Assembly: GCF_003334405.1 (NCBI RefSeq)
Contig: NZ_QOWM01000004.1
Reading direction: 5' to 3' (one strand)
DNA from: Escherichia coli
Lineage (GTDB): Bacteria > Pseudomonadota > Gammaproteobacteria > Enterobacterales > Enterobacteriaceae
Length of the DNA stretch: 64,000 nucleotides
Position numbers and translations under genes: made by a program. Under the pieces are notes generated by a model. It was not told the DNA's origin. It was given only the letters and a program-made list of their open reading frames with translations, and did no database searches. Within the stretch, counting starts at the first letter, position 1; each line of letters starts with the position of its first letter. This document shows, one piece after another, positions 51,469-61,105 of the stretch.

Positions 51469-51498
51469 CCGAATGGCGGCAATAGCGCCGCCATTCGG
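51469..51498. terminator. 12-bp hairpin between the convergent pepN and ssuB genes (shared terminator)
   Basis: Perfect stem ccgaatggcggc / gccgccattcgg with spacer aatagc, 8 nt after the pepN stop and 6 nt before the ssuB stop. Confidence 0.55.
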
Positions 51499-51503
51499 GG
51501 AAT

Positions 51504-52272
51504 TTACCCCTGTTTTCTCAGGCGAGTTTCAGATTCACCACGTTGCATCACCCGTTGCAACACCTCCGCTTCCAGCTCCGCTAATCGCACCGACCCTAAT
51601 CGACGCGGACGGGGGATATCCACTGTCAAATCCAGACCAATTTTTCCCTCTTCAATTAACAGCACCCGGTCAGCCATCGCTACCGCTTCGCTCACATCAT
51701 GCGTCACCAACAGTACGGTAAAGCCGTGCTCCTGCCAAAGTGACACAATCAAATCCTGCATCTCGAGTCGCGTTAAGGCGTCCAGCGCCCCGAGCGGTTC
51801 ATCAAGCAACAATAATCCCGGTCGATGAATCAACGCTCTTGCCAGCGCCACTCGCTGTTTCTGCCCGCCAGAAAGTGCGGCAGGCCATTCCCCTGCGCGA
51901 TTCTCCAGTCCTACCGCAGCCAACGCTCGACGTGCGGCATCGCGCCACTGGCCTTTAAGGCCTAACCCAACGTTATCAATCACCGATTTCCACGGTAGCA
52001 GACGCGCATCCTGAAACATCATTCGCGTGTCTTCCTGAATTTCAGCCAGCGGTGTGGTGCCCGCTAACACATCGCCTGCGGTTGGCGTTTCCAGACCTGC
52101 CAGCAGGCGCAGCAGGGTACTTTTGCCACCACCGCTGCGGCCCACCACCGCCACAAACTGACCTGCCGGAATATGTAAATCCAGTTGGTTCAGGACGATA
52201 TTTTTCCGCGTAATGTTTGCTTACTGCATTGAGCAACAATGGCGTGCCCTGGTTCAGACGAGCAGTATTCAT
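51504..52272 (-). pseudogene. ssuB: aliphatic sulfonate ABC transporter ATPase SsuB, disrupted by a +1 frameshift in a T5 run (52201..52205, plus strand)
   Basis: ATG at 52270..52272 reads [23 protein letters not shown] for 23 codons, then goes out of frame (ORF 52042..52272, 76 aa); the Walker A and rest of the ABC ATPase ([15 protein letters not shown]...LSGGQKQR...) lie in another frame (51504..52154); removing one T restores a 255-codon ORF. Confidence 0.8.
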
Positions 52273-53060
52273 ACCGTGGCCTCCTTCAAATGATAAGCCG
52301 GGTTCCAGCGCAACCAGAGGCGCTCTAACAGCTGCGCGCTGACGTCAGCCAGTTTGCCGAGCAGGGCGTAAAGAATAATAGCGACTACCACCACGTCCGT
52401 TTGCAAAAACTCCCGCGCATTCATCGCCAGATAACCAATGCCTGAATTGGCAGAAATGGTTTCGGCAACAATCAGCGTCAGCCACATCAGGCCCAACGCA
52501 AAACGCACGCCGACCATAATTGAGGGCAGGGCACCAGGCAGGATCACATGGATAAACAGCGGTATGCCGGATAATCCATAGCTACGCGCCATCTCCACCA
52601 ACCCGCGATCGATATTACGGATGCCATGCCAGGTGTTGATATAAATGGGGAATAGCGTACCGAGCGCCACCAGAAAGATTTTTGCGGATTCATCAATGCC
52701 AAACCACAAAATCACCAGCGGGATCAGCGCCAGATGCGGCACGTTGCGCAACATCTGAATTGAGGTATCCAGCAGCCGTTCTCCCCAGCGAGATAGCCCG
52801 CTAATCAGTCCCAAAATCAACCCCAGCGATCCGCCAATTGAAAAGCCAATCAGCGCCCGCCAGGAGCTGATCGCCAGATGCTGCCACAGTTCGCCGCTGG
52901 CGGAGAGCGTCCAGAACGCCGTCACCACTCCTTCCGGTGAAGGCAAAATACGCGTCGACAGCCAGCCAACCGAGGAGGCCAGTTGCCACACCGCCACGAT
53001 GCCCACCGGTAAAAACCAGGGGGCAACGCGCAATAACCACTTCTTCACTGGCGTTGCCAT
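52269..53060 (-). CDS. ssuC: aliphatic sulfonate ABC transporter permease SsuC
   Basis: ATG (cat at 53058..53060) gives 263 aa [34 protein letters not shown]...; 3' end overlaps the ssuB start by 4 nt. Confidence 0.93.
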
Positions 53061-53070
53061 TATTTCTTCC

Positions 53071-54216
53071 TTAGCTTTGCGCGACTTTACGGGGGATAAA
53101 ATCATTCGCCACCGCTTCGCCTTGCGGATTCAGCGGCTGCGGCTGGGGAATTTCCGGGATGGCGACATCCAGAAGCGGGAACAGCAACTCGCCAACCCGA
53201 TACGCTTCTTCCAGATGCGGATAGCCCGAAAGCACAAAACTGTCGATGCCAAGCGCGGCATATTCGTTGATTCGCGCAGCGACCGTAGGACCATCGCCCA
53301 CCAGCGCCGTCCCGGCACCGCCGCGCACTAAGCCAACGCCCGCCCATAAATTGGGGCTGATCTCCAGATTGTCGCGCTTGCCGTTATGTAACGCCGCCAT
53401 TCGCTGTTGCCCTACGGAATCCGTCCGGGCGAATGCGGCCTGTGCTTTGGCGATAGTTTCATCATCAAGATGCGAGATTAACCGCTCGGCGGCCTGCCAC
53501 GCTTCGTCGTTAGTTTCACGAACAATCACATGCAGACGAATACCGAAACGAATTTTGCGTCCATGCGCGGCAGCTTTCGCCCGCACTTGTTCGATTTTCT
53601 CTTTAACCAGTTCCGGCGGTTCGCCCCAGGTGAGGTAGAGATCAACCTGTTCTGCCGCCAGCTCCTGGGCGACATCTGACGATCCGCCAAAGTAAAGTGG
53701 CGGATACGGCTGTTGAATCGCCGGGAAGAGCAGTTTTGCTCCGCGCACATGAATATGTTTACCGTTGAAATCGACGGTTTCTCTCTGCAATAAACGCCGC
53801 CAGACCTGGGTAAATTCCGCCGAGGCTTCGTAGCGCTCGCTATGATCAAGGAACACTCCGTCGCCTGCCAGCTCTTGTGGATCGCTGCCTGTGACCAGGT
53901 TAAACAACGCACGTCCATTTGAGAGACGGTCAAGCGTGGCGGCCTGGCGGGCGGCAACGGTAGGTGAGGTTACGCTGGGACGCAGGGCGACAAGAAACTT
54001 CAGCCGCTGCGTCACCGGGATCATCGATGCGGCAACCAGCCACGCATCTTCGCAGGAGCGCCCCGTTGGAATTAGCACACCGGTATAGCCAAGACGATCC
54101 GCCGCTTGCGCAATTTGTTGCAGATAACCGTGATCAACCGGGCGTGAACCTTCTTCCGTTCCCAGATAATGCCCGTCACCGTGGGTCGGTAAAAACCAGA
54201 ACATATTCAGACTCAT
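53071..54216 (-). CDS. ssuD: FMNH2-dependent alkanesulfonate monooxygenase SsuD
   Basis: ORF 381 aa, [59 protein letters not shown]... Confidence 0.96.
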
Positions 54217-55172
54217 AATTGTTTTCCTTCCAGTTGAGTGGGCTGCCAGATGCGCTGGCGAATATCGACTTTTTTCGGCACCAGACGATTTTCATAAAAC
54301 AGATCTGCCGTTTGCTGCTGTAAGGCGGCAACCTCGGCGTTAACCGGTTTGATGGTGGTAGGAGGGCGATGATCTAAGTAAGAGGCAATCACCGGTGCCG
54401 GTAAGCCCATCGTTTTTGCCAGTAAAGCGATGCTTTGCTCGCGCTGGCTGCGGGTTAACGCATCGGCCTCACTAAAGGTTGCCAGTACGCCCTGAATAAA
54501 AGCGCCGTTTTTTTCTGCATAGGGACGAGCTGCCAGATAAAACGATCCAGTTTGATTGAGATCGGTGCCGTCTTTCAGCACCCGCACGCCGCCCTGTAAT
54601 AATGCAGCAGAGTAGTAGGGATCCCAGATAGCCCAGGCGTCAACGTTACCTTGCTGGAACGCGGCGCGGGCATCAGCGGGCGTCAGGTAAGTGGGTTGGA
54701 TATCGGTAAACTTAAGTCCGGCCTGACGCAGTGCACGCAGTAAAAGGTTGTGTGAACTGGAACCTTTCTGAAAGGCAACTTTGTGACCTTTAAGATCGGC
54801 TACGGTTTTGATCGGGCTGTTTTCTGCCACCAGAATCACTTCGGCTTTGGGCTTCGGTGGCTCGACGCCCACGTACACCAAATCAGCCCCGGCAGCCTGG
54901 GCAAAGATTGGCGGAATATCCCCGGTACTGCCGAGATCAATACTGCCAACGTTTAACGCTTCCAACATTTGCGGACCCGCGGGGAACTCCACCCAGGAGA
55001 TTTTTGATTCCGGATAGCGTTTTTCCAGTAACTGGTGGCTTTTTGCCAGCACCATACCAATACTGCCTTTCTGATAGCCTATACGTAACGCTTCAGGCGA
55101 GGATTCTGCAGCAACCGCAAAAGTAGAGACGCTAAGCAATCCCGCCAGCGCCAGTTTAATGATGTTACGCAT
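54213..55172 (-). CDS. ssuA: aliphatic sulfonate ABC transporter periplasmic binding protein SsuA
   Basis: ATG (cat at 55170..55172) gives 319 aa [36 protein letters not shown]...; overlaps ssuD and ssuE ends. Confidence 0.93.
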
Positions 55173-55740
55173 GGGCATTACCTCGCAGAGACAGAAGGTC
55201 AGGAACCTGAACATCGCGGCGGTGCAATGCCTGCCAGAAAGTTTCTAGCGCGGTATCAAGACGGGTTTGCAGATTTGGCGTGAACTGGGGTCTGTGATGG
55301 TAATCAATTACTTGTGAGTCATCGGCAAACACGCCGTGCAGGATCTCCTGAGCTTTCAGTGCGCTTAAAACTGGTTTAAGGGCATAATCGACCGCCAGCA
55401 GATGGGCCACGGTACCGCCCGTCGCCAGCGGTAGCACCACTTTGCCTTGCAAAGCGCGTTCTGGCAGCAGGTCGAGCAGGGTTTTCAACGCACCGGAATA
55501 GGCGGCTTTATACACAGGCGTGGCGACAATCAGCCCATCGGCCTGTTGCAGCTGTTCGGTGAAGGTCTTGAGTGCCGGACTATCGAAACGAGCATAAAGT
55601 AGATCTTCCGGGGCGAAGTTTTGCAGATTCCAGTGATAAACCTCTACATCCAGGCCATTTAGTTTTTCCCGCGCATATTCCAGCAAGGAGCTGGAGCGAG
55701 AAGGAAAGCGAGGACTACCCGCCAGGGTGATGACACGCAT
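55165..55740 (-). CDS. ssuE: NADPH-dependent FMN reductase SsuE
   Basis: ORF 191 aa, MRVITLAGSPRFPSRSSSLLEYAREKLNGLDVEVYHWNLQNFAPEDLLYARF... Confidence 0.95.
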   Translation of the reverse strand: MRVITLAGSPRFPSRSSSLLEYAREKLNGLDVEVYHWNLQNFAPEDLLYARFDSPALKTFTEQLQQADGLIVATPVYKAAYSGALKTLLDLLPERALQGKVVLPLATGGTVAHLLAVDYALKPVLSALKAQEILHGVFADDSQVIDYHHRPQFTPNLQTRLDTALETFWQALHRRDVQVPDLLSLRGNAHA

Positions 55741-56095
55741 ACTCTCTCCTTATAACCAATTGTTCTTTTTTTGTTAACATTGATAACAATTCGGTCAGTC
55801 TGTCGGAGAGACAAGAAAATTCCAAATATAAATTTTGTGTATCTTTTTCTGAAAATAAACTAAAGAAAGGGCTTTATATATCACGCATATTTATTTATTG
55901 GATAGTCATTAGATGTTGAATCAATGAATTACTCGTTCAGTTAATATTTAAATATTCATGAAATCTATAAATTAAAGATTTGTCACTTATTGGATTTAGT
56001 ATGCTTGATTTAAATGGCGGACAATTATTGTTATTATTAAGTCTAATGTCATTTAAAGGCATTATCATATTTACGAAGAGATCAGGATGATAACG

Positions 56096-56635
56096 ATGAA
56101 AAAAAGTGTATTGACGGCGTTTATAACTGTGGTATGTGCAACGTCCAGCGTTATGGCTGCTGATGATAATGCTATCACGGATGGCTCAGTAACATTTAAT
56201 GGTAAAGTTATTGCTCCAGCTTGTACCCTGGTAGCTGCGACGAAAGATTCCGTGGTGACTTTGCCAGATGTTAGTGCCACGAAGTTGCAAACCAATGGTC
56301 AGGTTTCTGGCGTGCAAATTGATGTGCCAATTGAATTAAAAGATTGTGATACTACCGTAACAAAAAATGCAACGTTCACCTTTAATGGCACTGCGGATAC
56401 TACTCAGATTACAGCGTTTGCTAACCAGGCCTCATCTGATGCTGCTACAAACGTGGCCCTGCAAATGTATATGAATGATGGTACAACGGCCATCACGCCA
56501 GACACAGAAACCGGGAACATTTTGTTGCAGGATGGAGATCAGACGTTGACTTTTAAAGTTGATTATATCGCTACGGGGAAAGCGACTTCAGGTAATGTGA
56601 ATGCGGTAACAAATTTCCATATTAACTATTATTAA
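56096..56635 (+). CDS. elfA: chaperone-usher fimbrial major subunit ElfA (YcbQ)
   Basis: ATG at 56096 gives 179 aa MKKSVLTAFITVVCATSSVMAADD... with signal peptide; first gene of the elf cluster. Confidence 0.9.
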   Translation: MKKSVLTAFITVVCATSSVMAADDNAITDGSVTFNGKVIAPACTLVAATKDSVVTLPDVSATKLQTNGQVSGVQIDVPIELKDCDTTVTKNATFTFNGTADTTQITAFANQASSDAATNVALQMYMNDGTTAITPDTETGNILLQDGDQTLTFKVDYIATGKATSGNVNAVTNFHINYY

Positions 56636-56717
56636 TAGAACTCATTAATTGTTTTATTAATTAGTACCCCTCCAGTGTTCTGGAGGGGATATTCATATTT
56701 TTTAAGAGTGACTATTT

Positions 56718-57419
56718 ATGAAAACTTGCATAACAAAGGGAATTGTGACCGTAAGTTTAACGGCAATATTACTCAGCTGCTCATCCGCATGGGCGGCAGG
56801 TAAAGGCGGGATTGGACTTGCAGCAACACGTCTTGTTTATTCAGAAGGTGAAGAGCAAATTTCACTGGGTGTACGTAACACCAGTCCGGATGTTCCTTAT
56901 CTTATTCAGTCATGGGTGATGACCCCAGATAATAAAAAATCAGCAGACTTTATTATTACACCACCGCTATTTGTGCTGAATCCGGCAAATGAGAATCTGT
57001 TACGCATTATGTACATTGGAGCGCCGTTGGCGAAAGACAGAGAAACCCTTTTCTTCACTAGCGTACGGGCAGTCCCTTCAACAACGAAGCGGAAAGAGGG
57101 AAATACCCTGAAGATTGCCACACAAAGCGTCATCAAACTTTTCTGGCGACCAAAAGGTTTAGCGTATCCCTTAGGCGAGGCTCCGGCGAAACTGCGTTGC
57201 ACTTCGTCAGCTGACATGGTTACGGTCAGTAACCCAACACCTTATTTCATTACCCTGACAGACCTGAAAATAGGTGGAAAAGTAGTTAAAAATCAAATGA
57301 TTTCCCCCTTTGATAAATACCAATTTTCTCTGCCAAAGGGGGCCAAAAATAGCAGCGTAACGTATCGAACCATCAATGACTACGGGGCGGAAACGCCGCA
57401 ACTCAACTGTAAATCGTAA
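56718..57419 (+). CDS. elfD: fimbrial periplasmic chaperone ElfD (YcbR)
   Basis: ORF 233 aa, PapD-like chaperone; MKTCITKGIVTVSLTAILLSCSSAWAAGKGGIGLAATRLVYSEGEEQISLGVRN... Confidence 0.92.
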   Translation: MKTCITKGIVTVSLTAILLSCSSAWAAGKGGIGLAATRLVYSEGEEQISLGVRNTSPDVPYLIQSWVMTPDNKKSADFIITPPLFVLNPANENLLRIMYIGAPLAKDRETLFFTSVRAVPSTTKRKEGNTLKIATQSVIKLFWRPKGLAYPLGEAPAKLRCTSSADMVTVSNPTPYFITLTDLKIGGKVVKNQMISPFDKYQFSLPKGAKNSSVTYRTINDYGAETPQLNCKS

Positions 57420-57443
57420 GCCGTCTTCAGTTAAGAGAGCGAG

Positions 57444-61105
<3,662 letters not shown>

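Follow-up and report, generated by a model that had tools for sequence, protein, structure and literature searches.

A probably recent one-base insertion in a short A-run as the likely cause of ssuB inactivation in a small ST10-complex-like sub-lineage of Escherichia coli

The analysed stretch of Escherichia coli DNA, which in the following is called the window and comprises 64,000 nt at its full length, contains the genes for aliphatic sulfonate uptake and use in the order ssuE-ssuA-ssuD-ssuC-ssuB, followed by the convergent pepN, which is the same arrangement as in MG1655. The gene ssuB is the last one of the ssuEADCB operon, and its neighbours pepN and elfA are common to the window and K-12. 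The features that matter for the following considerations are these:

51469..51498, minus strand: terminator-like hairpin of 13 pairs, 3' of ssuB, in the gap to the convergent pepN
51504..52272, minus strand: whole ssuB pseudogene, 769 nt, corresponding to MG1655 b0933 plus one inserted A
51504..52154, minus strand: downstream ORF of 216 aa with a GTG start, corresponding to SsuB residues 40-255 (ORF list and profile match)
52042..52272, minus strand: product of the frameshifted frame, 76 codons, with 23 native SsuB residues, 53 out-of-frame residues and a TGA stop
52201..52205, minus strand: A5 homopolymer, site of the +1 insertion (window bases against the MG1655 alignment; k-mer searches of finished genomes)
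52269..53060, minus strand: ssuC (permease), intact, with a TGA stop that overlaps the ssuB ATG (ATGA)
53071..55740, minus strand: ssuD, ssuA and ssuE, all intact and with the sequence of MG1655 (nucleotide comparison)

On the plus strand of the window, positions 52201-52205 read TTTTT, which is gcggAAAAAtatcg on the minus strand that encodes ssuB, and the run, at 52205-52201, stands there in the context ...CAT TAC GCG GAA AAA TAT CGT.... The wild-type run is A4, with GCG GAA AAT ATC encoding A-E-N-I, and when the ssuB region of the window is aligned with MG1655, the extra A is the single difference over 901 nt. In MG1655, ssuB (b0933) is annotated with 768 nt, that is 255 codons and a stop, and removal of one A from the run in the window gives a SsuB of 255 codons, which matches the length of b0933. 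As the gene stands, the ORF that begins with the ssuB ATG at 52272 ends at 52042 after 76 codons, and the ABC-ATPase core, from Walker A via THD to RLRKQG, lies in a different frame that ends at 51504. A sequence-only reading of this DNA had described the T5, the ATG frame of 76 codons with its stop, the core in another frame and the 255-codon protein that results from the removal of one A, and it had concluded that one extra base in a run of four A (+1) cuts Walker A off from the start codon; all of this is borne out by the window bases, the ORF reading and the comparison with the run of MG1655 ssuB. A start codon that would combine the T5 with an intact ATPase was sought and none was found: after its TAA at about 52221, the core frame has no ATG, GTG or TTG until the GTG at 52154 is reached, no ORF of this frame other than the 216-aa one has a canonical start, and gene callers give just this fragment, which lacks residues 1-39.

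The remainder of the operon shows no sign of a wider defect. The same reading had taken ssuEADC to be intact, which is correct, as each of these genes is identical to its MG1655 counterpart, and from position 52206 to 57624 the window has zero nucleotide differences from MG1655. Relative to MG1655, there is thus no decay beyond the inserted A, neither in ssuB nor in ssuEADC. As ssuC is intact and its stop overlaps the ssuB ATG, the translation start of ssuB is unaffected, and as the operon ends with ssuB and the hairpin follows, no polar effect on other genes is to be expected.

The domain content of the products was assessed with the SsuB equivalog profile NF008420 of NCBIfam, which has 257 positions and a curated cut-off of 395 bits. 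The restored 255-aa protein scores 497.6 bits, the 216-aa ORF 426.8 bits with a match to profile positions 41-255 of the 257, and the 76-aa product 19.2 bits with only its residues 1-24 matched. The cut-off is therefore exceeded by both the restored sequence and the 216-aa ORF, but there is no uninterrupted ORF of about 255 aa that would extend over the whole profile, the break lying after codon 23. The 216-aa ORF contains Walker A, the signature LSGGQ, Walker B and the H-loop, and it begins with Val40, five residues before Walker A, which means that the strands beta1-beta2 and the aromatic residue of the A-loop are missing. In an alignment with MalK (1q12), query residues 14-212 of SsuB correspond to 6-213 of the chain, and as the match of SsuB to solved nucleotide-binding domains, that of MalK included, begins with its residue 14, residues 14-39 are part of the fold. 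By ungapped offset, SsuB Tyr21 would correspond to MalK Trp13 and thus would be the aromatic residue of the A-loop. Residues 14-39 being absent from the 216-aa ORF, a complete ABC_tran nucleotide-binding domain is not present in one polypeptide, and residues 24-39 are encoded by neither the 76-aa nor the 216-aa product. The only candidate for a ribosome-binding site upstream of the GTG at 52154 is a weak AGG. Because residues 24-39 occur in neither product and only this weak AGG precedes the GTG, a functional ATPase is not expected. Judged from its sequence, the locus is an ssuB pseudogene that would contribute no functional member of the SsuB family.

Deposited entries of the fragment nevertheless bear the name 'aliphatic sulfonates transport ATP-binding subunit' (OSM93182.1, STL64534.1). 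As its 426.8 bits exceed the cut-off and as it carries the name of the ATPase in the databases, score-based naming hides the inactivation, and this is the practical lesson for annotation, as this type of inactivation can be concealed in the same way elsewhere.

The genome background is that of a close relative of K-12. The window aligns to MG1655 941,769-1,005,773 with 99.969% identity, the differences being 13 SNPs and 3 indels, and most variants relative to MG1655 are common to natural ST10-complex-like isolates, for example M217, by which the source is to be regarded as an ST10-complex-like E. coli and not as K-12. Of the three indels, one is a 5-bp deletion in ycaI, one shortens the A8 of the ompF leader to A7, and one is the insertion in ssuB. 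Among the missense changes relative to MG1655 are MukB Q379E (35688), LdtD Q10R (39303), YcaL T220K (19155) and ElfC Q61R (57625). The latter was considered as a marker of the sub-lineage and was dismissed, because at least 1,000 contigs carry the exact protein.

Still closer relatives exist for a part of the window, as six finished genomes match positions 39001-64000 over 24,999 nt. Two of the six, EH09-18-41 and NCTC9100, were checked base by base, and over these 25 kb the extra T at 52201 and a SNP at 55899 are all that sets the window apart from them. This SNP lies in the intergenic region of ssuE and elfA, 159 nt upstream of the ssuE start, where the window has a T like MG1655 and the two genomes have a C; an ssu promoter would be expected at this place. 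On the basis of this comparison, the ssuB insertion is to be regarded as the sole coding change in the 25 kb that is specific for the sub-lineage.

As three of six apparently private changes relative to MG1655 and M217 are indels, an error-prone assembly or a mutator lineage had been considered, but this idea had to be given up, as the ycaI deletion is widespread and the T7 of the ompF leader is found also in EH09-18-41 and NCTC9100. In ycaI, which encodes a ComEC-family protein (window 22553-24812), one copy of a tandem CTGGC (5 bp) is lost at about 24126-24135, which breaks the gene into two ORFs, one of 528 aa (554 aa with the mechanical start further upstream) and one of 230 aa. The exact product of the latter occurs in 722 blocks of the public collection, and the deletion is also present in finished genomes with intact ssuB (AP025209.2, CP122496.1, OY754357.1), which makes this allele an old and widespread pseudogene that is unrelated to the ssuB lesion. 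The run in the ompF 5' leader (window 45228-45234, minus strand) is A7 instead of the A8 of MG1655 (GTCATAAAAAAAACCATGAGGG) and sits 11 nt upstream of the ompF Shine-Dalgarno sequence. Being common to EH09-18-41 and NCTC9100, the A7 is to be regarded as a real polymorphism, and the variant in the ompF leader as well as the elfC Q61R change belong to the background polymorphisms.

A central question with any single-base change in a homopolymer is whether it exists in the organism, as homopolymer indels are common assembly errors, and the extra T might have been a miscall in a strain with a truly intact ssuB. The sequence-only reading had itself made this reservation, which can now be dropped. 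In 5,426 finished E. coli genomes, a 43-mer with A5 has no match, whereas its A4 counterpart, a 42-mer, matches 4,934 of them. The 43-mer has less than 28 nt on either side of the run and therefore seeds only in genomes with A5, and the negative result is validated by the 4,934 matches of the A4 counterpart. These matches also argue against a systematic error in this context, as the context is read there as A4. The exact 76-aa frameshift product is not found as a called protein in the public collection, and carriers of A5 were reached through an exact look-up of the 216-aa ORF, which gene callers report on 23 contigs. In this way, A5 with the flanks of the window was found in four other data sets, which are the NCBI assemblies GCA_024592625.1 and GCA_024592615.1 and the Logan re-assemblies of the raw runs SRR10342420 and ERR1948962. 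The Logan assemblies, whose raw runs come from different archives, are 100% identical to the window over 13,968 nt (SRR10342420) and 5,396 nt (ERR1948962), and in 20,651 nt of GCA_024592625.1 there are 2 mismatches, which both fall into a REP-like palindrome. As the four data sets either differ from the window's own record or are shorter than 64 kb, they are not that record. The two GCA assemblies have adjacent accession numbers and probably come from one study; a search of the literature for SRR10342420, ERR1948962, GCA_024592625, GCA_024592615, JANJGP and JANJGO gave no match.

The only place where the two GCA assemblies differ from the window is 42537-42605 in the gloC-aspC intergenic region, one having an AA deletion in an A6 and the other two SNPs in the palindrome (gccggatgcggcacgagcgccttatccggcctac), and this may be either real micro-variation or noise of short-read assembly in a repeat.

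A true error at the very same run is known from the NCTC draft GCA_900450035.1 (UGEQ01000001.1; window 41504-62157), which has an A3 there. This draft contains six 1-nt indel sites in 20.6 kb, including the A3 in ssuB, and its indels also split ssuD (81 + 278 aa) and ssuC (86 + 183 aa), and its A3 is a clear homopolymer assembly error. The example shows that the run can be misread, but the A5 is reproduced in the same lineage, on an identical haplotype in four other data sets, and the other two indels of the window relative to MG1655 are real shared alleles, which makes an artefact very improbable. Because the same allele occurs together with the same haplotype in the four other data sets, A5 is inherited in a small sub-lineage. 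Methodically, this means that a real homopolymer frameshift can be separated from an assembly error without reads when the exact downstream ORF is looked up in independent assemblies.

With A5 as an inherited allele, it may be asked whether frequent changes of the run from A4 to A5 and back switch sulfonate uptake on and off. The lesion lies in a homopolymer, and both the +1 state (A5) and the -1 state (A3) occur in public assemblies, but the A3 comes from the error-ridden draft GCA_900450035.1 mentioned above. A phase-variable locus would have a long tract with both lengths being common, and the tract of ssuB has only 4-5 nt, whereas known contingency tracts usually have at least 7 nt. Moreover, A4 is so frequent and A5 so completely absent among the finished genomes, and A5 tracks one haplotype, just as expected for a single inherited event, that phase variation can practically be dismissed.

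A different way to retain a function would be recoding, in which a full-length functional SsuB is made from the A5 allele by +1 ribosomal frameshifting or by slippage of the RNA polymerase. The lesion lies in an A-run, and the frame would be restored to ...AENIVL... if one A were dropped in the RNA, or if a +1 shift took place with tRNA-Glu on GAA in the P-site. Also, non-programmed frameshift suppression in E. coli has been found to reach 1-10% in aggregate with 1-bp deletions (PMC10861913), but these measured suppressions are -1 events and not the +1 or -2 events that would be required here. With respect to transcriptional slippage, runs that are prone to it have about 9 A/T in many bacteria (PMC1088944), and the 5 nt of the ssuB run are far below that. 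The site shows neither a known +1 slippery motif nor an in-frame stop or a rare codon, a Shine-Dalgarno-like stimulator is missing upstream of it, and as A5 is absent from the 5,426 genomes, there has been no selection to decode it. The site cannot be called 'programmed', because it arose once and recently. Some leaky full-length SsuB from the A5 allele is possible, but recoding to a functional SsuB is highly unlikely.

It is thus very likely that a genuine and recent insertion, from A4 to A5, inactivates ssuB in a small ST10-complex-like sub-lineage. Most likely, replication slippage in codons 23-24 of ssuB created the A5. Translation of ssuB would begin normally at the ATG, coupled to ssuC via the ATGA overlap, the ribosome would be out of frame after Glu23 and would stop at codon 77, and a complete nucleotide-binding domain would be found in no polypeptide from this locus. 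We infer a loss of ssuB function from these frames and from the domains they retain. Without ATPase subunits an ABC importer does not work, and SsuABC, the importer of alkanesulfonates, is therefore predicted to be inactive, while SsuA, SsuC, SsuD and SsuE could still be produced under sulfur starvation. Hybrid Tau/Ssu transporters are not known to function. It would be expected that the sub-lineage has lost growth on sulfonates that enter solely via SsuABC and has retained the use of taurine via TauABCD, provided that tauABCD, which lies outside the window, is intact. According to the works of van der Ploeg 1999 and Eichhorn 2000, in the form in which PMC4501297 and PMC6906117 cite them, aliphatic sulfonates cannot be used without the ssuEADCB cluster, and the substrates of SsuABC and TauABC overlap only partly.

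Whether such a loss brings an advantage is a separate aspect. The knockout might be adaptive in the sub-lineage, for example by avoiding a toxic sulfonate or by saving costs in a sulfur-replete gut, and ssuB has indeed been disrupted independently in other strains. In the 5' region of ssuB that corresponds to window 52150-52272, an IS1 end abuts about codon 18 (L024/L025), a 16-bp tandem duplication (GTGGCGGTGGTGGGCC) is found in the Walker A region in five samples (L022), and nonsense mutations in other E. coli are K19* (L013) and Q29* (L023). Some further contigs with the 216-aa ORF have no true lesion and are artefacts, with N-gaps (L012, L020) or a poly-A patch (L017). Despite the independent disruptions, knockouts are very rare, with 23 contigs read that have the 216-aa ORF, several of which are artefacts, and intact copies are found in thousands, as indicated by a protein cluster of 2,907 members and by the 4,934 genomes. 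This rarity fits an occasional neutral or mildly deleterious loss, and a selected loss is therefore unlikely. In a more speculative form, the A5 could be a leaky, frameshift-suppressed allele with low SsuB, or a positively selected knockout directed against a toxic substrate of SsuABC; if this were true, for which the chances are rather poor, the sub-lineage would be a natural test case for +1 error frameshifting or for selection against sulfonate uptake. With the far more probable plain inactivation, the ssuB of this sub-lineage should be annotated as a frameshifted pseudogene, and there is little significance beyond the correct annotation.

Among the known systems, the ssuB of E. coli K-12 (b0933, WP_001090506.1) resides at the same locus, in the same operon order and with the same neighbours, and only one base differs, the extra A of the window in codons 23-24, which results in a 76-codon product and an ATPase core that has lost its start. 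Cases that likewise have an ORF broken at an A/T run, and in which transcriptional slippage rescues the product, are mxiE of Shigella, dnaX of Thermus and IS elements with 9A/9T (PMC1088944), as well as tssM of Citrobacter rodentium (PMC4256274). The cases of PMC1088944 have runs of about 9 nt, whereas the run of ssuB has 5 nt and its interruption occurs in 0 of the 5,426 finished genomes. Much closer are the lineage-specific pseudogenes that have arisen by homopolymer frameshifts in E. coli and Shigella, with which ssuB shares the single-base indel in a short run, the small clade, the lack of any additional decay and the intact neighbours. Single-base slippage pseudogenes of E. coli and Shigella are routinely flagged as 'frameshifted' by PGAP. 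Within the same window, the 5-bp deletion in ycaI represents an older and far more widespread frameshift pseudogene, and in comparison with the pseudogenes caused by frameshifts in short homopolymers, ssuB is a typical case without any material difference, that is, an ordinary pseudogene of a well-known kind.
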